Shown: positions 5,542-36,739 of the stretch, one piece after another
Layout: each line of letters opens with the position of its first letter
How positions within the stretch are numbered: position 1 is the first letter of the stretch
NCBI GenBank assembly: GCA_021775355.1
Contig: JAJFHZ010000025.1
Location: 6,698-70,697 of the forward strand
DNA from: Amylibacter sp.
Lineage (GTDB): Bacteria; Pseudomonadota; Alphaproteobacteria; Rhodobacterales; Rhodobacteraceae
Direction of reading: 5' to 3'
Length of the DNA: 64,000 nucleotides
The notes under the pieces: generated by a model
Databases searched by the model: none
Told to the model about the DNA's origin: nothing
Seen by the model: the letters and a program-made list of their open reading frames with translations, nothing else
Program-made: the position numbers and the translations under genes

Positions 5542-5848
5542 CGGCAACCTCGTACATCACAGGTTCGAAACCTTTGCACATTTCATTGATGATGCGGTTG
5601 CGTTTGCGCATCTCATCCGTGCGCAACATAGCTTGAAAATCCTTGCGATCTTGCCATTGGGAATAGTTTGCAATCCGGGTTTGCGCGTCATTCACATGCA
5701 GCCCAGCCGCAATAAACCCCGGCTGTTTGCTGATCACATCGCGATACGCATCCGTCAACGCATCCAACATATCCTGACAGGTCCCCGGCGTTACCTCAAA
5801 GGTTGTCAAAACGGTTTGCGATGTCGTGTCTGTAGAAATATGTAGCAT
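5531..5848 (-). CDS. Antibiotic-biosynthesis-monooxygenase (ABM)-like small protein
   Basis: 105 aa. The pattern TFEV...FIAAGLHVNDAQTRIANYSQWQDRKDF matches the ferredoxin-like ABM fold. Confidence 0.6.
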   Translation of the reverse strand: MLHISTDTTSQTVLTTFEVTPGTCQDMLDALTDAYRDVISKQPGFIAAGLHVNDAQTRIANYSQWQDRKDFQAMLRTDEMRKRNRIINEMCKGFEPVMYEVAATF

Positions 5849-5902
5849 AGGGCAGCCTCCTGCATCACAGTCTAGCAGCCCAATACCAATCCCGAAAGAC
5901 GT

Positions 5903-6310
5903 TTAACGCAAAACATGCACAGCGCAAGTCGCATGGCGTACAACGCGTGCAGCGGTTGAGCCTAAAAAGTAATCCTGATACCCGGGGCGGTGAGATGCTA
6001 CAATGATGCAGTCGATTTCATTCTTTTCCGCATAATCCAGAATACTGTTCGCAGAATGGCCCACGATCACGTCAATATTCGTATTTCTATGCCCATCGGC
6101 GTCTTCTTGCAGTTTAACCTTGGCATCGACCACATTCTTGGTCATCTGGTCGTCGGGCAGTTGTTGCGCAATATAAGGCGGTATAAATTCCACAATAGAC
6201 AATAATGTAATCTTACTGTCTTTGTCGCGAATGACTTCAGCCAGATCAATAGCCGCTTTCGTATCGCGCTGATGGTCCGGTGCAATCGGGATGAGAATTG
6301 ATTTATACAT
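5903..6310 (-). CDS. Universal stress protein
   Basis: 135 aa, YKSILIPI...IDCIIVASHRPG...LGSTAARVVRHATCAVHVLR, a typical UspA domain. Confidence 0.85.
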   Translation of the reverse strand: MYKSILIPIAPDHQRDTKAAIDLAEVIRDKDSKITLLSIVEFIPPYIAQQLPDDQMTKNVVDAKVKLQEDADGHRNTNIDVIVGHSANSILDYAEKNEIDCIIVASHRPGYQDYFLGSTAARVVRHATCAVHVLR

Positions 6311-6361
6311 AAGATCCTCCTTTTCATTGATTTTAATATAAAGGGCCAGAAACAGTGCGCT

Positions 6362-6375
6362 TTGATCTAAATCAT
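6362..6375. promoter_or_regulatory. FNR/FixK-like box TTGATCTAAATCAT upstream of the USP gene
   Basis: One mismatch to TTGAT-N4-ATCAA. Centred about 58 nt upstream of the USP start codon at 6310. Confidence 0.4.
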
Positions 6376-6514
6376 ATTTTGCACATGCAGGTTTTAATAT
6401 TGACTGTCAGGCCCATTCGCTAGAAACTGCGTCCAAGGGGACGCGCGAACACCCCGTGAGGCGACAGCCCAAGTTTCGTATCCATGAACCTCTGATACAA
6501 AGGAAGGATGCGCT

Positions 6515-7330
6515 ATGCCTGCACCAACTGAAATTACCCCTCAACAACTTTCCCGCCTTATCGGCACACCTGAATGCCCGATCCTGGTCGATGTCTGTAT
6601 CGACGAAGATTTCAACCAAGATCCGCGTATAATTCCCGGCGCACGCCGCTATCCATTCGACAGGATCGCAGATTTAGCGCCAGAACTTTTGGGCGCGAAA
6701 GTTATCGTAATGTGTCACAGGGGCTTGAAGCTTTCCCAAGGGGCAGCCGCATTATTACGTCACCACGGGATTGCATGCGAAACTGTTCAGGGCGGCATTG
6801 TTGCTTGGCGCAAAGCGGGCCTGTCGATGGTTCCCGCCGATAAAATCCCGATGCAAAAGGACGGTAGCACCCTTTGGGTCACGCGCCACCGTCCTAAAAT
6901 TGATCGCATCGCCTGCCCTTGGCTGATCCGCCGCTTTGTCGACCCGCGCGCTAAATTCCTTTTTGTATCTTCCTCACAAGTCATTAACGTGGCTGAAAAA
7001 TTCAACGCCACACCGTTTGATGTCGAAGATTGTTTTTGGACACACCGCAATGACCAATGTACCTTTGACACAATGATCGACGAATTCGGATTAAACACCG
7101 AACCTCTTCATAGGCTTGCCGCCATAGTACGCGGTGCAGACACAGACAGGCATGATCTTGCCCCCGAAGCCGCGGGTTTATTGGCCGTGTCACTCGGCTT
7201 GTCACGTATATACCGTGATGATCTCGCACAACTTAAAGCGGGGATTGGCGTTTATGACGCTTTTTACCGCTGGGCGCGAGATGCATCGGATGAAAGTCAT
7301 AACTGGCCCGCAACAAGTGCAAAAGGATAG
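6515..7330 (+). CDS. Rhodanese domain fused to a ChrB C-terminal (chromate resistance) domain
   Basis: N-terminal rhodanese-like region with CHRGLKLS active-site loop. C-terminal WVTRHRPKIDRIACPWLIRRFVDPRAKFLFV is typical of ChrB-C. Directly precedes chrA. Confidence 0.75.
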   Translation: MPAPTEITPQQLSRLIGTPECPILVDVCIDEDFNQDPRIIPGARRYPFDRIADLAPELLGAKVIVMCHRGLKLSQGAAALLRHHGIACETVQGGIVAWRKAGLSMVPADKIPMQKDGSTLWVTRHRPKIDRIACPWLIRRFVDPRAKFLFVSSSQVINVAEKFNATPFDVEDCFWTHRNDQCTFDTMIDEFGLNTEPLHRLAAIVRGADTDRHDLAPEAAGLLAVSLGLSRIYRDDLAQLKAGIGVYDAFYRWARDASDESHNWPATSAKG

Positions 7331-8604
7331 TGACCATGTCCGATACAAAACCAACACTTTCCCAAGCCTTTCGCGTCTGGGCCAAAATAGGCATCTTATC
7401 ATTCGGCGGCCCCGCTGCCCAAATCGCTATGATGCACCGCGAAGTTGTCGACGATAAAAAATGGCTTAGTGAAAAACAATTCCTGAATGCCCTTAGCTTT
7501 TGCATGTTACTGCCGGGGCCAGAGGCCATGCAGCTTGCCACCTACACAGGCTGGCGCCTGAACGGCACAATCGGGGGGCTGATTGCAGGCCTTTTGTTTG
7601 TCATTCCCGGTGCCATTGTCATCCTGGCACTTGCCACACTCTACGTTTACCTTGGTAAGGTCCCCATCGTCTCAGCCCTATTCCTAGGCGTCAAAGCAAC
7701 CGTTGTCGTGATCGTTATCGAGGCCCTGTTACGGGTCTCTGCAAAAGCCCTGAAACGCACGGATCATTGGGTTATCGCAGCCCTTGCTTTCATCGGTATC
7801 TTCTTTCTTGGTATCCCCTACCCGCTGATAGTTCTGATTGCCGCTATTTATGGTCTGTTCTTCAACGATACATCCCTAGAAACAGGTGCCGCAGTCAAAC
7901 ACCATCAACCTTTCACTAAAACCCTTACAACCATCTTTCTGTGGTTGGCAATCTGGTGGCTGCCTATCCTGATCCTTGATATGGTCACAGAACACAGCAT
8001 TCTAAAGGAAATTGCCGCTTTCTTTTCAAAACTGGCCGTCGTCACCTTCGGCGGGGCTTATGCAGTCCTTGCTTATATGGCGCAAGACGTAGTCATTCTC
8101 AAAGGCTGGCTTAGTGCCGACCAAATGATGGATGGCTTGGGGTTGGCCGAAACCACCCCCGGCCCGCTGATCCTTGTGACCCAGTTCGTCGGCTTCCTTG
8201 CAGGTTTCGCCAGCGGTGGTTGGTGGCTTGGCCTAACCGCCGCCATCGTCACACTTTGGGTTACATTCACACCTTGTTTCCTGTGGATATTTGCAGGCGC
8301 GCCCTACATCGACTGGATCGGCACCCAACCACGCCTGCGCGGGGCATTAAACGCGATCACCGCCGCCGTTGTCGGCGTTATACTTAACCTGTCGATCTGG
8401 TTTGCATTGCATGTTTTTTTTGACATTGTAGAACCCATAAAACATGGCCCTTTAACCCTTTGGCAGCCTGCACTGGCATCCATCAACCCAACTGTAGTCG
8501 CCCTTGCCATTCTGTCTGGATACCTTCTGCTGAAACGTCACTGGAATATAGTGCTGGTACTGTTTTTATCCGCTTTACTGGCGTTGGGAATTGCACAAAT
8601 TTAA
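7330..8604 (+). CDS. chrA: Chromate ion transporter (CHR family)
   Basis: 424 aa polytopic protein. SFGGPAAQIAMMH...LPGPEAMQLATYTG is repeated in the second half (VTFGGAYAV...TPGPLILV). The start is either GTG at 7330 or ATG at 7336. Confidence 0.9.
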   Translation: MTMSDTKPTLSQAFRVWAKIGILSFGGPAAQIAMMHREVVDDKKWLSEKQFLNALSFCMLLPGPEAMQLATYTGWRLNGTIGGLIAGLLFVIPGAIVILALATLYVYLGKVPIVSALFLGVKATVVVIVIEALLRVSAKALKRTDHWVIAALAFIGIFFLGIPYPLIVLIAAIYGLFFNDTSLETGAAVKHHQPFTKTLTTIFLWLAIWWLPILILDMVTEHSILKEIAAFFSKLAVVTFGGAYAVLAYMAQDVVILKGWLSADQMMDGLGLAETTPGPLILVTQFVGFLAGFASGGWWLGLTAAIVTLWVTFTPCFLWIFAGAPYIDWIGTQPRLRGALNAITAAVVGVILNLSIWFALHVFFDIVEPIKHGPLTLWQPALASINPTVVALAILSGYLLLKRHWNIVLVLFLSALLALGIAQI

Positions 8605-29606: not shown

Positions 29607-31262
29607 ATGTCATCAAACAAATACGTCTACTTTATGGAAGGTGTTTCAAAGACCTACCCCGGCGGTAAAAAATGTTTTGAGAACATCCACTTGTCATTCC
29701 TACCGGGCGTCAAAATCGGTGTGGTCGGCGTAAACGGCACCGGTAAATCCACCCTGATGCGCATCATGGCGGGTATGGATAAGGATTTTCAGGGTGAAGC
29801 ATGGGCTGCCAAAGGCGCCACCGTGGGCTATCTGCCGCAGGAACCGAAACTGGATGAGGCCCTGAATGTACGCGAAAACGTCATGTTGGCGGTTGCCGCC
29901 CAAAAGGCGATTCTGGACAAATACAACGATCTGGCAATGAACTATTCCGATGAAACCGCAGATGAGATGGGCAAATTGCAAGACCAGATCGACGCCGAAG
30001 ATCTGTGGAACCTTGACGCCAGCATCGACATTGCGATGGAAGCCCTGCGCTGCCCGCCCGATGACGCGGATGTTAAAACCCTGTCGGGCGGTGAAGCCCG
30101 CCGTGTGGCGCTTTGCAAACTGCTGTTGGAAAAACCCGACATGCTGCTGTTGGACGAACCCACCAACCATCTGGATGCCGAAACCATCGCATGGTTGCAA
30201 AACCACCTGATCGACTACAAAGGCACCATCCTGATCGTCACCCATGATCGCTATTTTCTGGATGATATCACCGGTTGGATCTTGGAACTCGACCGTGGTC
30301 GCGGCATTCCATACGAAGGCAACTATTCCGCATGGGTCGAACAAAAAGCCAAACGCATGGCGCAAGAAGCCCGCGAAGACAAATCCAAATCCAAAACGCT
30401 GGAACGTGAACTGGAATGGATGCGTCAGGGCCAAAAAGCCCGCCAAGCCAAACAAAAAGCCCGCGTCAATGCTTATAACGAACTGGCGGGTCAGTCTGAA
30501 CGCGATAAAGTCGGCAAAGCCCAGATCATCATCCCCAGCGGGCCACGCTTGGGGGCCAAAGTGATTGAAGTAGAAAACATGTCGAAAGCTTATGGCAACA
30601 ACCTGTTGATCGATGATCTTTCGTTCAGCCTGCCGCCGGGTGGTATTGTCGGTGTGATCGGCCCCAACGGGGCGGGTAAATCAACGCTGTTTCGGATGCT
30701 GACGGGGCAGGAACAGCCCGATAGCGGTACGGTTGAATTTGGCGACACGGTGAAACTTAGCTACGTCGATCAGTCGCGTGATGCGCTGGACGACAAGAAA
30801 ACCGTCTGGGATGAAATTTCAGGCGGCAATGATATTATCCAACTGGGGGACGCGGAAGTGAATTCACGCGCCTATTGTTCCAGCTTCAACTTCAAGGGTG
30901 GTGACCAGCAAAAACCGCTGGGGCTGCTTTCTGGTGGCGAACGCAACCGCGTTCATATGGCGAAGCTTTTGAAGGATGGCGGCAACGTGCTGCTGCTGGA
31001 TGAGCCGACAAACGATCTGGATATCGAAACCCTGCGGGCATTGGAAGATGCGCTGACGGATTTCGCGGGCTGTGCGGTGGTGATCAGCCACGACCGTTTC
31101 TTTCTGGACCGTATCTGTACCCACATGCTGGCGTTCGAGGGGGACAGCCACGTGGAATGGTTTGAAGGCAACTTTGAGGACTATGAAGAAGACAAAAAAC
31201 GCCGTCTGGGGCCGGACGCCTGCGAGCCGAAACGGGTGAAATACAAGAAGTTCACACGATAA
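29607..31262 (+). CDS. ettA: Energy-dependent translational throttle protein (ABC-F)
   Basis: 551 aa with two ABC cassettes (GVNGTGKST, GPNGAGKST; LSGGE x2) and the EttA-type N-terminus VYFMEGVSKTYP. Confidence 0.95.
   Translation: MSSNKYVYFMEGVSKTYPGGKKCFENIHLSFLPGVKIGVVGVNGTGKSTLMRIMAGMDKDFQGEAWAAKGATVGYLPQEPKLDEALNVRENVMLAVAAQKAILDKYNDLAMNYSDETADEMGKLQDQIDAEDLWNLDASIDIAMEALRCPPDDADVKTLSGGEARRVALCKLLLEKPDMLLLDEPTNHLDAETIAWLQNHLIDYKGTILIVTHDRYFLDDITGWILELDRGRGIPYEGNYSAWVEQKAKRMAQEAREDKSKSKTLERELEWMRQGQKARQAKQKARVNAYNELAGQSERDKVGKAQIIIPSGPRLGAKVIEVENMSKAYGNNLLIDDLSFSLPPGGIVGVIGPNGAGKSTLFRMLTGQEQPDSGTVEFGDTVKLSYVDQSRDALDDKKTVWDEISGGNDIIQLGDAEVNSRAYCSSFNFKGGDQQKPLGLLSGGERNRVHMAKLLKDGGNVLLLDEPTNDLDIETLRALEDALTDFAGCAVVISHDRFFLDRICTHMLAFEGDSHVEWFEGNFEDYEEDKKRRLGPDACEPKRVKYKKFTR
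31237..31262 (+). repeat. Copy 1 of the 26-nt ettA-tail repeat (functional 3' end of ettA)
   Basis: TGAAATACAAGAAGTTCACACGATAA encodes ...KYKKFTR-stop. Confidence 0.85.
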
Positions 31263-31358
31263 TCTGCGCCCTCTGTCCTAGATGGGACATAGGGTTAATG
31301 CTTTGATTTTATTAACTTACTTGATAAACACTCATAGATTATTGTAAATTAAAGTTGA

Positions 31359-31384
31359 TGAAATACAAGAAGTTTACGCGGTAG
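31359..31384 (+). repeat. Copy 2 of the ettA-tail repeat (orphan)
   Basis: TGAAATACAAGAAGTTTACGCGGTAG matches copy 1 at 22 of 26 nt. It encodes the same KYKKFTR-stop, and all four differences are at synonymous third positions or the stop codon. Confidence 0.85.
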
Positions 31385-32281
31385 GATTTCGAGATTAAGA
31401 AACGGACACTCTTTAATAATGGCGAAAGATACGCAACTGCGCTTGGTTTCGTAAACAGTGGGTATCCATGCCCTATTTGTGCTCGCGTCTATTATCTAGA
31501 GCATTTAGAATCAGGCGAGTTAACTGAAGAACATGTCCCTCCCAAAGCAATAGGAGGCAAAGCTATTATTTTAACATGTCGAGAATGTAATAATAATGCT
31601 GGAACTTGGTTCGAAGAAGACCTCATAAAGCGAAAACATCTAATAACACAGGCCAAAGGCATTCTAGGAAGCCAAACTGGAAATTTCGGTCATGTGAAAA
31701 TTGAGATTGGTGGGAACGTTATTAATGCCAATCTCAATAGAAACGATAATCATACTACATTCTTAATCTCAGAGCATAACAACCCTAAAGCAGTAAATCA
31801 GCTTAGACATAGTTTAAAAAATATGGGAGAAGGTGATGAGGTCAAAGTTCATTCAACTAAAGCTTTCATTAAAAATAATATTCGTAAATCTGATTTGAAA
31901 ACCTTATTTCTAACCATGGCAGCAAAATTTGGATATACTATTGCTTTTAATCAGAGGTTAGACATTGTTAGGGAGATTTTGGCTGAAAAAGAAACAAACT
32001 TAAGAATACCGTTATTATATTTGGATACAAATACACAATTGAACGACAAAATTATTATTGATGAAAAGGCTGGAATATTTGGGATGCAAATTGATGACAG
32101 GCTTGCTTTTTGCCCATGGCCTTCACATCCAATTAAGAGATTTACCAATCACATCAAAAGAAATAATCTTAATATTGAATTCACTATAAAAGGCAGTGCT
32201 TTTGACATGCCCGAGTCATTTGAAGCATTGCTAGACACAAAAGCTATGGGTGATAAAAAGCATCCCAGCCCTCGTCCCTAG
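31385..32281 (+). pseudogene. HNH-type (HNH_5-like) nuclease reading frame with no canonical start codon; possibly frameshifted or decayed
   Basis: The frame is open from 31385. It encodes CPICARVYYLEHLESGELTEEHVPPKAIGGKAIILTCRECNNNAG (CxxC...EH...CxxCN). The first ATG/GTG/TTG in frame is GTG at 31694, which lies after the nuclease motif. The region is AT-rich. Confidence 0.55.
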
Positions 32282-32345
32282 ACGAGGGCCGCGCCCGATC
32301 CTCCCCCACGGGAGGGCGCACTGCGCCCACCCTCGTCTCGGGCGC
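32268..32345. repeat. GC-rich multi-hairpin element between convergent AT-rich genes
   Basis: GCCCTCGTC/GACGAGGGC spans the stop codon. Other pairings are CCTCCC-CCAC-GGGAGG, GCGC-ACT-GCGC and GCGCCC/GGGCGC. GACGAGGG (32281) also pairs with CCCTCGTC (32330). Confidence 0.5.
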
Positions 32346-32351
32346 TACGTG

Positions 32352-32519
32352 TTAATTATTTAGAGCTTGGTAAGCCGTGATTAGATCACTCGAACTAAAG
32401 CTAAAAATCAAGCACAATACTATAACAGTGAGTAAAACTGCACCAAGACCAGTACCACGAAATGTACCCATCTTAATATCAGCATCGGCTATTAATTTTA
32501 TAAGATTTTTCAACCCCAT
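32352..32519 (-). CDS. 55-aa small membrane protein
   Basis: GAGGAG lies 7 nt upstream of the ATG at 32519. MGLKNLIKLIADADIKMGTFRGTGLGAVLLTVIVLCLIFSF has one C-terminal TM helix. AT-rich. Confidence 0.55.
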   Translation of the reverse strand: MGLKNLIKLIADADIKMGTFRGTGLGAVLLTVIVLCLIFSFSSSDLITAYQALNN

Positions 32520-32593
32520 GATCGGACTCCTCGCTTTAGTTCGAAAATCATTGGGTTTAGAACTCGATATTAGCGGTTTGCGAAAAGCCTTGT

Positions 32594-32615
32594 AAAGATG
32601 AATCAAAGATGAATC
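32594..32615. repeat. Perfect tandem duplication of the 11-mer AAAGATGAATC
   Basis: Units at 32594-32604 and 32605-32615, about 75-95 nt upstream of the small membrane protein start. Confidence 0.6.
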
Positions 32616-32979
32616 GCGACATTTAAAGTAAATACCCTCATATAAAACCACATTTTGTGGGTAAAACAACCAAAACCACTAGATTAAGGAACCATTCAAG
32701 CTACAGAATGCATTTATGCATTGTTCTCAAGCCAACATATCTAAGGCACTTGCATAACACACACTGCAATTCCCCTCTTCCCCTCCCCCGCATCCTCCAT
32801 TACCCTGCGCTTAGGGTTGGCGTATGCCAGCCTCGGGGCGTTGTAACCCCTCACGGAGCGGCTGACATCAGCCGTTATTGTTGTCTCTTCGATTTCAAGG
32901 TCGGGGAGGCTATGACGCATGTCCAGGGCTTCGGCCTAAAGGTCATGGCGGTCGTCTTCGTGCGGCTTACAAACTCCCC

Positions 32980-33010
32980 GGCTGTCGGTGATCCGACAGC
33001 CGTTTCATTT
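32980..33010 (+). terminator. Terminator-like hairpin GGCTGTCGG-TGAT-CCGACAGCC plus GTTTCATTT
   Basis: Perfect 9-bp stem with a T-rich tail, ending 15 nt before the ATG at 33025. Confidence 0.5.
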
Positions 33011-33024
33011 GGAACAACGGGAGC

Positions 33025-33237
33025 ATGATAATGTCTGACATCGACATCAAAGATATTCGGGTCACGGCCAGCCAGCGCACATGGATTGTGGCCTACTTGC
33101 AGATCGGCGCACCGCACAACCCGAACGATCTGTTTTGCCGATTGCTGGTTGAATTGCTGGGCCAACCGATGGTGAATGAACCCCAAGCGGGGATTATGCT
33201 GCATTTGGTGGATAAGCCCGATCCAAAGGTAAAGTAA
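33025..33237 (+). CDS. 70-aa hypothetical protein
   Basis: GGGAG precedes the ATG. Codon third positions look host-like. No family was recognised. Confidence 0.35.
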   Translation: MIMSDIDIKDIRVTASQRTWIVAYLQIGAPHNPNDLFCRLLVELLGQPMVNEPQAGIMLHLVDKPDPKVK

Positions 33238-33264
33238 TCACGCCAGATTGCCCCACGGCCCCTA

Positions 33265-33278
33265 TTGACCCATATCAA
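33265..33278. promoter_or_regulatory. FixK/FNR-type box TTGACCCATATCAA
   Basis: Perfect TTGA-N6-TCAA about 60 nt upstream of the first gene of the USP pair. Confidence 0.5.
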
Positions 33279-33338
33279 AGCACGTTGTCAGCGGTTGCTT
33301 TAACCTGAAAGCAACTTAACCAAACAGGAGGATTGATT

Positions 33339-33785
33339 ATGTTCAAGAAAATCGTTGTGGGTCTAGACGGTTCCGACCATGCCGAAAACGCATTGCGCGT
33401 TGCTTGCGATATCGGTCAGAAATACAATTCTGAAATTCATCTGGTATACACGGCACACCCCGAAACCGTTGGTTTCGCAGTGGGGGCCGTTGCAGGATTT
33501 CATGCCGCATCAACCATGCCAACAGCGGCAGAGGTTAAGGCGGCAGGTGAAAAAGTTTTGGCAGCCGGTGCAGCCATTGCCAAGGAATGCGGTCAAAAGA
33601 CCACTGAAAGCCATATGGAAACCGGCAATGCCGCCGATCAGATACTGGCCTGTGCAGATGCCTGCGGTGCCGATCTGATTATAACAGGTCGCCGGGGCAT
33701 GGGTGCCATTGGCAGTCTTTTGTTGGGCAGCACATCCCAACGCGTGGCACATTTGGCAAAATGCGCCTGCCTGTCCGTGATCTAA
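33339..33785 (+). CDS. Universal stress protein (paralogue 1)
   Basis: MFKKIVVGLDGS...DLIITGRRGMGAIGSLLLGSTSQRVAHLAKC, with AGGAGG RBS. Confidence 0.9.
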   Translation: MFKKIVVGLDGSDHAENALRVACDIGQKYNSEIHLVYTAHPETVGFAVGAVAGFHAASTMPTAAEVKAAGEKVLAAGAAIAKECGQKTTESHMETGNAADQILACADACGADLIITGRRGMGAIGSLLLGSTSQRVAHLAKCACLSVI

Positions 33786-33851
33786 CTTTCAATTGGTTCG
33801 GGATGAAGGCCCGATAAACAGTTTCAAACTCATCTGATAGGAGGTTTTATT

Positions 33852-34289
33852 ATGTTCAAGAAAATCGTTGTTGGCCTAGACGGTTCCGAAGCGTCTGAAA
33901 AAGCACTGCGCATTGCCTGTGATCTGGCGCAGAAATACGGCGCGAAGATGCATATCGTACACACCCCGCAGGTGGAAACGCTGGCGGTTTACATGGGTGC
34001 GGGCGGTGCGGTTTCGGTCACCCCCAGCCAGAATGAACTGGATGCGGTCGGTGCGCAGGTTATCGAAAACGGTTGCGCCATCGCCAAGGAATGCGGGCAA
34101 AAGGTTGCCAAAACCCATTTGATCCACGGCAACCCCGCCGATCAGGTTTTGCAATGCGCCGAAGATTGCGGGGCCGATCTGATTGTCACGGGCAGGCGCG
34201 GTTTGGGCAGTATTTCGGGCCTGCTTCAGGGCAGCACATCCCAGCGCGTCAGTCATTTGGCAAAATGCGCCTATCTGTCTGTTGCCTGA
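33852..34289 (+). CDS. Universal stress protein (paralogue 2)
   Basis: MFKKIVVGLDGS...DLIVTGRRGLGSISGLLQGSTSQRVSHLAKC. Clearly paralogous to the upstream gene. Confidence 0.9.
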   Translation: MFKKIVVGLDGSEASEKALRIACDLAQKYGAKMHIVHTPQVETLAVYMGAGGAVSVTPSQNELDAVGAQVIENGCAIAKECGQKVAKTHLIHGNPADQVLQCAEDCGADLIVTGRRGLGSISGLLQGSTSQRVSHLAKCAYLSVA

Positions 34290-34422
34290 CTGTGGTTTTC
34301 GCAAGACACCCGTATACCTGCCTTAATTGCCCGTAAATGGCCCTGAAAACGCCACATTTCAGACCTTTGAATTCCATGTTTTGTTGACAGTAAGGAAACA
34401 GTAACCAGTAAGGAGACGTGTC

Positions 34423-34635
34423 ATGAAACCGTTCAAATTAGAAGCCAAACACCTGATCCCCCTAAATGAGACCGCCTATAAGAAAAGCGCCATAACGCAG
34501 CTTTTGCGCGATCTGATCAAACAACCCGACGCGGTTGTTGAAGCAATAGAAAAAACGTCTTTGCGTTTCTCGCGTATCCCGCAGAAACCTTGCACTGTTC
34601 ATACAGGCATTAGACCTTACCTAGCAGCGGTTTAA
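34423..34635 (+). CDS. 70-aa hypothetical protein
   Basis: GGAGA RBS, followed by a strong terminator. No family was recognised. Confidence 0.4.
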   Translation: MKPFKLEAKHLIPLNETAYKKSAITQLLRDLIKQPDAVVEAIEKTSLRFSRIPQKPCTVHTGIRPYLAAV

Positions 34636-34642
34636 TGACCGG

Positions 34643-34683
34643 GCACCCTATTCATTTCTCCCGTGAATAGGGTGCATTTTATT
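34643..34683 (+). terminator. Rho-independent terminator
   Basis: 12-bp perfect stem GCACCCTATTCA/TGAATAGGGTGC, then ATTTTATT. Confidence 0.8.
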
Positions 34684-34786
34684 CAAAATATCGAAACCCC
34701 GACTTGGCCGTGAAAGGCCAATAAGGCTTGCGTTTAAGCCATATCCCTTGCAAAACTTTGTTAAATTAACGCACAGAGGTAAATAT

Positions 34787-35800
34787 ATGCGCAAGGTTCT
34801 GATCACGGGTACCGCAGGTTTTATCGGGTATCACCTTGCCACCCATATGCTGGAAGAAGGCTTTCAGGTCATCGGTTTCGACGGGATGACAGATTACTAC
34901 GATGTCACCCTAAAGCAGCGTCGACACCAAATGCTATTGCAAAATCAGAACTTTACCTGTGTCGAAGCCATGCTGGAAGATTTTGAAACATTGCATAAGC
35001 TGGTTGAACAGACCCGTCCCGACATTATCATTCATTTGGCCGCCCAAGCGGGTGTGCGTTATTCACTGGAAAATCCGCGTGCCTATATCGAAACCAACAT
35101 CGTCGGCACATTCAACGTGATGGAATGCGCACGCGAATTCGGTGTGGAACATCTGTTGATGGCCAGCACATCATCCGTTTATGGTGCCAACACAGACATG
35201 CCGTTTGCGGAAACCGATCAAACCGACACCCAACTAACAATTTATGCCGCCACCAAGAAAGCCAATGAAAATATGGCACATTCTTATGCGCATTTATGGA
35301 AAATCCCGACCACGATGTTTCGGTTCTTTACGGTTTACGGGTCGTGGGGTCGTCCCGATATGGCGCTGTTCAAATTCGTCGATGCCGCCCTGAAAGGCCA
35401 ACCTATAGACGTCTATAACAACGGTGATATGGCGCGTGATTTCACCTATGTGACCGACCTTGTGCACGGTATCTGCCTGCTGTGCGATACGCCACCGGTA
35501 GAGCCAGCCAATCCAGATGATATTGCACCCGGCGATAGCCTAAGCCCGGCGGCCCCCTACCGCACTGTGAACATCGGTAACAACGACAAGGTGCAATTGC
35601 TGGATTTCATAGATCAGATCGAAGCAGCCATTGGCCAACCGATTGAACGCAATTACATGGAAATGCAACAGGGCGATGTGCCAGCCACTTGGGCCAATAC
35701 GGAACTGCTGCAAAGCCTGACAGGTTACAAGCCGCAAACGTCCGTGCGCGAGGGTATAGGCAAATTCGTAGCTTGGTACAGAGATTATTATCAGGTTTAA
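34787..35800 (+). CDS. NAD-dependent nucleotide-sugar epimerase (UDP-glucuronate 4-epimerase-like)
   Basis: VLITGTAGFIGYHL Rossmann motif and YAATKKANE (YxxxK). The start is set at ATG 34787 after AGAGG. Confidence 0.88.
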   Translation: MRKVLITGTAGFIGYHLATHMLEEGFQVIGFDGMTDYYDVTLKQRRHQMLLQNQNFTCVEAMLEDFETLHKLVEQTRPDIIIHLAAQAGVRYSLENPRAYIETNIVGTFNVMECAREFGVEHLLMASTSSVYGANTDMPFAETDQTDTQLTIYAATKKANENMAHSYAHLWKIPTTMFRFFTVYGSWGRPDMALFKFVDAALKGQPIDVYNNGDMARDFTYVTDLVHGICLLCDTPPVEPANPDDIAPGDSLSPAAPYRTVNIGNNDKVQLLDFIDQIEAAIGQPIERNYMEMQQGDVPATWANTELLQSLTGYKPQTSVREGIGKFVAWYRDYYQV

Positions 35801-35803
35801 AGT

Positions 35804-36739
35804 TTAGACTTGCCGACGGTATGTTGCAGGGGCCGTTTGGTGGTATTTCTTGAACACCCGACCAAAAGCGGCTTCAGATTGATATCCCACATCCTCGGCT
35901 ATCTTGATAATCGGGTCATCGGTTTTCAGCAATTTCTGGCTGGCAATTTGCATGCGCCAGTTGGTGATATAAGCCATCGGTGTGACCAGCATGGATTTTA
36001 CAAATAGCATCGCAAAAGACGTACGCGACATACCGGCAATTTTAGCCATATGTCCCAGTGTCCACGGGTATGACGGGTCTTTGTGAATGGCCGTAAGCAC
36101 GCGCGCAATTTGCGGGTTTGTAAAGCCGGACATGACGGGTTTATCTGCACCTTTTTCGTTCAGATAATCCCGCAAAGCCTGTGCAAAGATGATCTCAGAC
36201 ATCTTCAAACCAATCAGATCACCCCCCATCTGTGCGTGCCCAACTTCATTCCCGATCACCCGCAATGTATTTTCCATCCAGCGGCCAGAGTTCTCCCCAT
36301 AATTGCGAATATGGATATAAGACGGCAGGGCATCTATCAGCATATGGTTAGCCTGATCGGCAAATGAAAAATGTCCGCATACCAATTGGGTTTCATGATG
36401 TGTGCCCGGCTCTCCGCCATAAACCAATGCACCCTTTCCTGTATAACCCGACTGTTCCACCACCCGATCCAACTGAACCGCTTGCGCTTCGGTTATCGGG
36501 TCGCAAAAAAGTGTGTGCGTTTCACCGCGTGTGATAATGACCAAATCACCTTGTTCCAACGACACAGGTTTTTTACCATCACCAACCCGCACCAGACACC
36601 GGCCCTTATGGGCGTAATGAAACCGCGCCACGCTTTTATAGGCCGGCACTTTTATGCTCCATGGTGATGTAAAAGATGTCCGAAAGTACAAGGTTCCTGA
36701 CAACTGCAGATGGGATAAAATATCGCTTAATAAGTCCAT
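35804..36739 (-). CDS. AraC family regulator with an N-terminal cupin domain
   Basis: C-terminal IAEDVGYQSEAAFGRVFKKYHQTAPATYRR. Confidence 0.9.
   Translation of the reverse strand: MDLLSDILSHLQLSGTLYFRTSFTSPWSIKVPAYKSVARFHYAHKGRCLVRVGDGKKPVSLEQGDLVIITRGETHTLFCDPITEAQAVQLDRVVEQSGYTGKGALVYGGEPGTHHETQLVCGHFSFADQANHMLIDALPSYIHIRNYGENSGRWMENTLRVIGNEVGHAQMGGDLIGLKMSEIIFAQALRDYLNEKGADKPVMSGFTNPQIARVLTAIHKDPSYPWTLGHMAKIAGMSRTSFAMLFVKSMLVTPMAYITNWRMQIASQKLLKTDDPIIKIAEDVGYQSEAAFGRVFKKYHQTAPATYRRQV

Follow-up and report, generated by a model that had tools for sequence, protein, structure and literature searches.

What does it mean when a conserved translation-factor gene appears to end twice? In the 64,000-nt stretch of Amylibacter sp. 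contig JAJFHZ010000025.1 analysed here (hereafter the window), the 3′ end of ettA recurs 122 nt downstream, directly against an open reading frame (ORF) of the HNH_5 endonuclease family. The second copy is probably what is left of a real ettA 3′ end to which the HNH gene was formerly fused without a gap, whether in the window lineage or in a donor, and would thus represent a recombination footprint at a hotspot anchored on ettA. The parts of the locus on which this argument turns are as follows, with all positions being those of the window.

29607-31262, forward strand: ettA (551 codons), energy-dependent translational throttle ABC-F ATPase (TIGR03719, NF008775)
31236-31262, forward strand: ettA end copy 1, GTG AAA TAC AAG AAG TTC ACA CGA TAA, continuous with the ettA ORF
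31270-31293, forward strand: 10-bp hairpin just 3′ of the ettA stop, obtained with RNAalifold; the flank shared with relatives continues to TTTGATTTTA, which ends at 31311
31312-31357, forward strand: joint zone from the native flank to the insert of putative relic plus HNH gene; very AT-rich, with alignment lost after TTTGATTTTA
31358-31384, forward strand: ettA end copy 2 (the putative relic), ATG AAA TAC AAG AAG TTT ACG CGG TAG, within the AT-rich insert and in frame with the abutting HNH ORF
31385-32281, forward strand: HNH_5-family endonuclease ORF, 298 sense codons plus TAG (PF14279, open frame, homologue N-termini)
31469-31603, forward strand: zinc-finger/HNH core CPIC...EHVPPK..GG....LTCRECNN (conserved alignment columns, Pfam residues 43-83)
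32262-32352, forward strand: GC-rich element resembling a repetitive extragenic palindrome (REP), 75% GC, with three small hairpins; right border of the HNH insert, also found between ettA and Usp in the relative L127

Two ettA ends and the flank between them

The identity of the upstream gene is clear, as its product exceeds the cut-offs of both TIGR03719 (941.7 vs 806.75 bits) and NF008775 (939.9 vs 599 bits), and the gene order LysR-ettA-...-Usp-epimerase is common to the relatives L127, L128, L129 and L139. No exact protein match to the window EttA was obtained, and relatives were identified by way of Usp and near-identical EttA proteins. An earlier note on this DNA had described a 26-nt repeat of the gene end, and the repeat is present as described: TGAAATACAAGAAGTTCACACGATAA at 31237-31262 and TGAAATACAAGAAGTTTACGCGGTAG at 31359-31384 are identical at 22 of 26 positions, and both encode KYKKFTR followed by a stop. 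The repeat in fact measures 27 nt at an offset of 122 nt, and its additional first codon is GTG (Val) in copy 1 and ATG in copy 2. All five differences between the copies are transitions. Four of these are silent, in agreement with the synonymous-only differences previously noted within KYKKFTR-stop, and the fifth, GTG to ATG, sits just before that stretch. The silent-only changes in both the codons and the stop bear out the proposal that the two copies are genuine ettA ends that diverged under coding constraint.

The closeness of the copies, which lie only 122 nt apart, could also suggest a local tandem duplication or slippage event followed by divergence, or else a chance or REP-like motif. 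However, the similarity is limited to 27 nt and has a sharp edge, as identity at the 122-nt offset drops to random levels upstream of 31358 (0-4 of 9 per block), which is not the pattern of a 122-nt tandem unit. Silent-only differences would also be rare under neutral drift; the probability that four random substitutions in the 24 nt retain the peptide and stop is ~5e-4, rising to ~0.01 if only transitions are allowed. Furthermore, the arrangement is missing from relatives that lack the insert, and insert-free relatives with the same tandem arrangement, the case named beforehand as one that would count against insertion, were not seen. With respect to chance or a REP motif, there are only two copies in the 64-kb window when up to 3 mismatches are allowed, and 0 of 100 shuffles reached two (chance mean 0.00 per shuffle). 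The search for a third copy that had been proposed turned up none within the window, and a local-alignment scan of 31262-36000 likewise gave no third copy of the ettA tail. Both explanations are therefore considered extremely improbable. A chimera introduced during assembly was also considered and is unlikely because the longest exact match shared by the two copies is 16 nt and the arrangement is identical in the independent Logan assembly L001.

Comparison with relatives establishes which of the two ends is the working one. On comparative sequence grounds, copy 1 together with the hairpin that follows it is the native, working end of ettA, since the same hairpin follows ettA in L128, L129, L131 and L139, all of which are HNH-less and syntenic. 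RNAalifold on the window, L128, L129 and L131 yields 10 pairs, two of which are kept through changes on both sides. The sequence after copy 1 runs through this hairpin and then continues to ...GTTAATGCTTTGATTTTA. The tail GTTAATGCTTTGATTTTATT after the hairpin is moderately T-rich (a weak T-run), and the hairpin was not called by a consensus terminator scan; it is probably the ettA terminator. The post-ettA flanks align across the window, L128, L129 and L131 up to TTTGATTTTA and then degrade, with variable DNA beginning at ~31312. Consequently, of the 95 nt that separate the copies, the first 49 or more (31263-31311) are native sequence common to HNH-less relatives. The earlier description of sequence becoming abruptly AT-rich after copy 1 holds only in part: the 17 nt before copy 2 (31341-31357) are indeed only 18% GC, but the GC-rich hairpin comes first, and the 78-nt conserved flank of 31263-31340, hairpin included, has a GC content of 37%.

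In the joint zone, a possible extension of ettA homology, GAT TAT TGT AAA compared with GAT GCC TGT AAG in L129, has ~50% identity and is both post hoc and marginal. No mosaic that would reveal a crossover within ettA was seen in 150-nt windows. When the RNA of 31255-31400 is folded, the T-rich tail at 31303-31320 pairs with the start of copy 2 at 31352-31370 (minimum free energy -34.2 kcal/mol, z = -3.25); this pairing may simply be that of a T-run with A-rich lysine codons.

The HNH gene and its place at ettA stop codons

Copy 2 ends in a TAG (31382-31384) that is followed, with 0 nt between and in the same frame, by the HNH ORF. The match of this ORF to HNH_5 (PF14279, residues 43-83) lies above the gathering score (E = 6e-8, 32.9 bits vs a cut-off of 27.5). 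Over this span, its frame contains 0 stops, compared with 21 and 37 in the other two, and none of 5000 shuffles leaves the frame open. The first ATG, GTG or TTG in it is an internal GTG at 31694. When 39 homologues are aligned, their N-termini (M-x2-5-[KR][KR]xxLF) fall on IKKRTLF in the window, which places the native start within ~10 nt of the copy 2 TAG. Because the family N-terminus aligns on IKKRTLF, the start is likely the ATT at 31394-31396, the one plausible codon by sequence; otherwise, the start codon has been lost. The AGGA at 31383-31386 overlaps the copy 2 TAG and lies 7 nt ahead of this ATT. The public protein P0001 (195 aa, 31694-32281) begins at the internal GTG and omits the whole HNH/zinc-finger domain. 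This annotation is probably wrong, owing to the missing canonical start codon, and deprives the predicted protein of its catalytic domain.

Within the HNH alignment, columns C65, C68 and N69 are invariant, and C29, C32 and E49 are nearly so. The window protein possesses the CxxC...CxxC pattern, the first His (EH, 31529-31534) and the Asn (CNN), and it carries a Thr after CNNxAG (AGT) where many homologues have His (AGH). The AlphaFold2 model of the protein has a mean predicted local distance difference test score (pLDDT) of 92.5 and a predicted template-modelling score (pTM) of 0.89, with residues 293-298 below 50. No Foldseek match to the whole-chain model was obtained at E < 0.08 in PDB or BFVD, and the C-terminal domain has no solved relative by sequence; in the model, the ~200 residues that follow the HNH core seem to adopt a fold not previously described. 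PADLOC gave no match for the protein and PHROGs gave only weak HNH-motif matches. The GC content of the HNH gene is 35-36% vs 54% for ettA in the window. The insert as a whole spans ~0.9 kb, from ~31312-31357 to ~32261, and contains little besides the putative relic tail and the HNH ORF, the 3′ end of which enters the REP-like element by ~20 nt such that its last 6 sense codons (HPSPRP) and TAG are read from that element.

The location of homologous genes is central to the interpretation of copy 2. The HNH family comprises 1715 cluster representatives at E ≤ 1e-3, and homologue loci were located with a degenerate DNA motif scan. Context was resolved for every close clade member that could be reached (L026, L132, L133-135, L136-138, L082, L002-4, L048, L130 and the window), and 9 of 9 directly follow ettA and share its strand. 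The junctions outside the window are listed below.

L026 (Rhodobacter metagenome-assembled genome): HNH TTG start overlaps the ettA TGA stop (cgTTGAgg); HNH gene degraded
L132 (P0004): HNH start overlaps the ettA stop, cgGTGAgc
L133-135 (P0005): HNH start overlaps the ettA stop, cgATGAcg
L136-138 (P0006): HNH start overlaps the ettA stop, cggTAATGttg
L082 (Aliisedimentitalea scapharcae) and L002-4 (P0002): hairpin, then HNH TTG start ~50-60 nt downstream of ettA
L048: HNH gene 117 nt downstream of ettA
L130 (P0003): HNH gene 361 nt downstream of ettA, with REP-like elements in the gap

Start and stop thus overlap in 4 of the nine lineages. The HNH proteins of the eight ettA-linked loci other than the degraded L026 are only 32-58% identical in pairwise comparisons, and EttA of the clade hosts is ~82-85% identical to that of the window. 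The same insertion site beside a conserved sequence is therefore found in divergent hosts, as expected of a homing gene (nine clade members, four with overlaps). Presence and absence, together with foreign composition, follow the same expectation, as the HNH gene is absent from L127, L128, L129, L131 and L139, and its GC content falls 10-15 points under that of the neighbouring ettA in 5 of 5 loci measured. The order of copy 2, TAG, 9 nt and HNH gene in the window has the layout of a normal ettA-HNH junction, and copy 2 was therefore presumably once a real ettA end. Additionally, the copy 2 16-mer AAGAAGTTTACGCGGT is identical in the real ettA tail that adjoins the HNH homologue in L132, and copy 2 shares TTT...TAG with the genuine ettA tail of the HNH-less L127. 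Among the possibilities raised by the earlier note, the one that fits best is that one copy belongs to the HNH islet to its right, or reflects co-conversion by a free-standing homing nuclease, given that the HNH ORF follows copy 2 in frame with no gap and that every close HNH homologue sits at a real ettA stop.

This linkage does not extend to the family as a whole. Distant members (24-30% identity) are not beside ettA and have as neighbours genes for a PLD nuclease, ribonucleotide reductase, Schlafen/AlbA_2, an Eco57I-type methylase, patatin and a DAC-sensor. Family-wide tight coupling of the HNH gene to the gene upstream was considered and rejected, as gaps range from -7 to >1000 nt and the neighbours are diverse. 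One distant member, in L010 (a Longimicrobiales metagenome-assembled genome, minus strand), starts 9 nt after a ribonucleotide reductase gene (5898-7958); genes for ribonucleotide reductase are classic targets of homing endonucleases and inteins. With regard to a phage origin, the family motif had no match in 2.9 million viral contigs.

A cargo-swapping hotspot and a proposed route to a displaced gene end

A second example of a duplicated ettA end comes from L131, the closest relative, in which ettA is 92% identical to the window at the nucleotide level (83-92% across L127, L128, L129 and L131). This contig was the only one returned by a metagenome scan with the hairpin pattern. Its second ettA 3′ end is ~80 nt long, ~72% identical, frameshifted and interrupted by in-frame stops, and lies 710 nt downstream of the real end. 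The tail of the L131 relic has CTT at the Phe codon and a TAG stop, and the relic ends TAG|GATT, like copy 2 of the window. Among nine loci tested, a downstream copy of the tail scored above the shuffle maximum only in the window and L131. In the window's relatives, the DNA after ettA is occupied as follows.

L127: nothing after ettA and no hairpin; REP-like element at 5737-5842 between ettA and Usp
L128: two small ORFs and a tRNA-Trp gene (6651-6726, minus strand) after the ettA hairpin
L129: DUF6161 gene after the ettA hairpin
L139: two 83-aa ORFs and an IS66-family transposase (DDE_Tnp_IS66; 6041-7477, minus strand) after the ettA hairpin
L131: 154-aa ORF (no family match) between the ettA hairpin and the ettA relic, then a TcmP/DUF5131 pair

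Six alleles are therefore found among close relatives, carrying DUF6161, TcmP/DUF5131, an IS66 transposase, tRNA-Trp with small ORFs, HNH, or nothing, and the hotspot is bounded by the conserved ettA and Usp genes plus REP-like repeats. In L131, where these genes occupy 393-2656 on the minus strand, the TTG start of TcmP (TIGR04474, E = 3e-45) lies 3 nt after the relic and is followed by DUF5131, a combination that NCBIfam regards as a mobile gene pair.

The duplication and restoration of a gene end, as occurs at tRNA, tmRNA and prfC integration sites, raises the question of whether an integrase-type element inserted in the 3′ end of ettA and brought a replacement end. The copies would then be attL and attR of a decayed element, or the lone att site of the HNH islet, and tandem accretion could account for the second relic in L131. 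This was the leading proposal of the earlier note, and it finds no support because no integrase was found, the borders of the insert do not coincide with the copies, and native sequence with the probable terminator lies within the spacer. No integrase, recombinase or transposase lies within ~10 kb. The ORFs of ≥150 aa between 20 and 44 kb of the window could all be assigned to housekeeping Pfam families or explained in other ways, and none encodes such an enzyme; in L131, the 2.8 kb that follow ettA likewise contain none. At least 49 nt of the 95-nt spacer (31263-31311) is native, which renders unlikely the suggestion that the copies flank a decayed remnant. As for att-like direct repeats, copy 2 lies inside the insert, and no matching repeat is present at the right border (32262) or elsewhere in the window. 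Furthermore, the two relics differ in length (27 vs ~80 nt), in distance from the real end (122 vs 710 nt) and in decay, which makes a fixed att core unlikely. Separate joins without site specificity seem to have produced the two relics, and an integrase-type island is very improbable at this locus. An integron is similarly not indicated by inspection of the sequence, although a formal attC model was not run. An attC site is a single long imperfect hairpin with RYYYAAC/GTTRRRY cores that follows each cassette, whereas 32262-32352 forms three short GC hairpins and the adjacent GTTAAT does not fit GTTRRRY.

The reading we prefer, in which copy 2 is a displaced ettA end, can be set out as a sequence of events. 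As a rule, the ettA stop is the exact insertion point of clade HNH genes, whose start codons often overlap it; such genes would travel with, and be expressed from, the end of ettA. In an ancestor, an allele bearing the HNH gene would have recombined with an HNH-less allele of the terminator type. The most likely route would involve one homologous crossover inside ettA and one illegitimate join ~27 nt before the old stop, a combination known as homology-facilitated illegitimate recombination. In an equally possible mirror-image route, a donor fragment starting 27 nt inside ettA would have been inserted behind the resident terminator. Either would place the new tail (copy 1) and the native hairpin after ettA, followed by a short AT-rich joint and then by the old tail (copy 2), the HNH gene and the native REP-like element. 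We infer the route, its direction and any role for cleavage by the HNH protein from this product.

Several observations weigh against this reconstruction. Silent allelic differences aside, the last 27 nt of the relic carry ~9 changes in L131 vs 1 in the window; the pristine state of the window relic next to its decayed counterpart implies either that the two arose in independent events or that selection maintains the window relic, perhaps because it serves as a leader in HNH expression. Lacking a canonical start codon, the HNH ORF may already be a pseudogene. The first HNH His is replaced by Asp (ED) in the ettA-linked L002 (about 250-255), L082, L048 and L026, and is retained (EH) in the window and P0003-P0006; given this substitution, the nuclease competence predicted for the ettA-linked clade is uncertain. 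Within the searched databases, the closest homologue of the window HNH protein is 45% identical, and no allele was found in which the window HNH gene is fused to a functional ettA. The association with ettA could also reflect vertical descent plus losses rather than mobility. Finally, direction and mechanism cannot be read from a single genome.

Selection on copy 2 could take a specific form, in which the 8-codon ORF MKYKKFTR-stop is translated from a leaderless transcript that begins at A31358, and termination at TAG feeds ribosomes to the weak ATT 9 nt downstream, thereby mimicking the coupling of homologues to ettA. Owing to the G-to-A change, the repeat opens with an ATG, a promoter-like TTGATA-18-TAAATT (31321-31350, 9 of 12 matches) ends 7 nt ahead of it, and AGGA overlaps the TAG 7 nt ahead of the ATT. 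The window relic has 0 non-silent changes in comparison to the decayed L131 relic, and the start/stop overlaps of four homologues offer a precedent for coupling to ettA. On the other hand, promoter-like sites are no more common than in shuffles (4 found vs 4.8 expected), coupling would not need the peptide to be conserved, and the features in question are those of a single lineage, as L001 has the same sequence. A leader function read from these sequence features is quite improbable.

A more general question is whether the nuclease takes part in its own spread. According to a homing model, a free-standing HNH homing endonuclease would cut HNH-less ettA 3′ junctions, and imprecise repair would have copied the gene plus 27 nt of the donor ettA end behind the resident terminator. 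In nine divergent lineages, the gene has been inserted precisely at a conserved coding end. The window's closest relatives lack it, its GC content is low relative to every host measured, and the L026 copy is degraded. Two Logan contigs of ~1 kb, L002 and L132, start exactly 30 nt upstream of the position 4 nt beyond the ettA stop, and the L002-4 contigs finish 30-32 nt beyond the HNH stop, which would fit a k=31 presence/absence bubble. The identity of AAGAAGTTTACGCGGT with the HNH-linked ettA tail of L132 is in keeping with such a history. Additionally, the last Phe codon is the minority TTT in the GC-rich, HNH-bearing ettA genes of L082, L048 and L130 (3-5 of 16-18 Phe codons per gene). This last signal is weakened by the HNH-less L139, whose tail reads TTT ACG AGG. 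L139 is a hairpin allele ending in TTT ACG AGG TAA, and it likewise weakens a dichotomy that had been considered between old-type TTT...TAG and hairpin-type TTC...TAA tails. Other results do not sit well with homing. The catalytic His is not conserved (ED in L002, L082, L048 and L026), and the window lacks a His after CNNxAG. The structural model has no match among known homing endonucleases, the viral contigs contain no match to the family motif, and other family members occupy contexts resembling defence islands. Moreover, a precise event should replace the ettA tail rather than duplicate it. Active homing is accordingly a tentative explanation and a somewhat doubtful one.

The diversity of alleles at the hotspot suggests that the HNH gene could instead be a passenger. 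In this scenario, the ettA 3′ flank would be a general exchange hotspot at which cargo, HNH genes included, spreads in Rhodobacterales by homologous recombination in ettA, possibly with the aid of gene transfer agents; the nuclease would play no part in its own spread and may function in defence or otherwise, and relic tails would be by-products of occasional illegitimate joins. Consistent with this scenario, the six alleles of close relatives carry different cargo or none, the L131 relic precedes cargo that is not HNH, and members of the wider family lie beside PLD, Schlafen/AlbA_2, Eco57I-type methylase, patatin and DAC-sensor genes. Passive transfer by itself leaves unexplained why nine HNH lineages (32-58% identical) are all located at ettA, four of them overlapping it, when other cargos vary by genome, and the lack of a PADLOC match lends no weight to a defence role. 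Passive spread is as tentative an explanation as active homing, and as doubtful. Elements of these proposals may be combined, such that the ~290-aa HNH clade in Rhodobacterales would be a chromosomal free-standing homing endonuclease at the ettA stop, translationally coupled to ettA, and copy 2 would be a co-conversion footprint whose ATG mini-ORF preserves coupling past the terminator. We regard this composite as unlikely.

Known systems and neighbouring features

Free-standing homing endonuclease genes of phages, which include the seg and mob genes of T4 (for example MobE) and comprise HNH and GIY-YIG classes (PMC2790892), offer the closest comparison for the HNH gene itself. The resemblance lies in a small nuclease ORF with hardly any other cargo at a fixed spot beside a conserved gene, in a patchy distribution, in composition that is AT-richer than the host, in the degradation of some copies, and in host-gene flank carried along as in co-conversion. 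In contrast to the phage genes, the window clade is chromosomal (Rhodobacterales), its motif had no match in the viral contigs, and it is fused to the ettA stop by ATGA, GTGA, TTGA or TAATG overlaps. It also differs in its variable catalytic His, in ~200 C-terminal residues that have no fold match in PDB or BFVD, and in that cleavage is presumed. To our knowledge, there is ample documentation of free-standing homing endonuclease genes from phages and organelles, and hardly any from bacterial chromosomes.

Integrative elements that insert in the end of a gene and supply a replacement end include the tRNA and tmRNA islands and SXT/R391 in prfC. The window locus resembles these in that the host gene is intact, the old end persists downstream as a direct repeat, and the target is related to translation. 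It departs from them in the absence of an integrase, in repeats that do not bound the insert, in relic length and spacing that vary between sister lineages, and in a spacer that includes native sequence with the probable terminator.

Homology-facilitated illegitimate recombination, in which one homologous anchor is combined with one illegitimate join, has been described in natural transformation of Acinetobacter and pneumococcus. Its predicted product, A-B′-X-(part of B)-Y, agrees with the anchor gene, sharp non-homologous joint and variable relic length seen here, where the mechanism is deduced from the end product. The locus also shares with core-gene-flanked hotspots for horizontally transferred and defence genes an intergenic site whose cargo differs from one close relative to the next. 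Unlike at such hotspots, one cargo type, the HNH clade, is tied across genera to the stop of the same core gene at nucleotide precision. An HNH clade locked to the ettA stop across divergent, mostly Rhodobacterales lineages in a cargo-swapping hotspot appears to be undescribed in the searched literature.

There are two reasons for interest in this locus beyond the annotation error described above. Should the HNH clade home, it would provide a clean, testable bacterial example of homing and a potential new sequence-specific nuclease with a fold unmatched in PDB or BFVD. The locus also illustrates how pseudo gene ends can arise by recombination of alleles at a core-gene hotspot with no integrase, a point of importance for software in which duplicated gene ends are taken as evidence of genomic islands.

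Further features lie to the right of the HNH gene. The core of the REP-like element, CCTCCCCCACGGGAGGGCG, is present in one copy in the 64-kb window and also follows the HNH gene of L130 (GCA_052670005.1; 4035-4053). Beyond this element there is a further variable segment:

32353-32770, no strand assigned: second strain-variable AT-rich block (36% GC), in the same hotspot and not part of the repeat; contains an ORF at 32352-32522 on the minus strand (56 aa, no family match)

L124 and L125 have unrelated AT-rich sequence at the position of this block and retain the conserved GC-rich leader that follows it (32771-33030), which precedes an ORF of 68-70 aa (33025-33237). The only match to known RNA families in 31000-33400 was a sub-threshold one to sRNA-Xcc1 at 32900-32990 (24 bits vs a gathering score of 53). 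The leader contains two terminator-like hairpins, at 32857-32876 and 32979-33002, and may be a regulatory RNA. Downstream of the hotspot, the window carries two tandem paralogous Usp genes (33333-33785 and 33852-34289), where L127, L129 and L139 each have one only.

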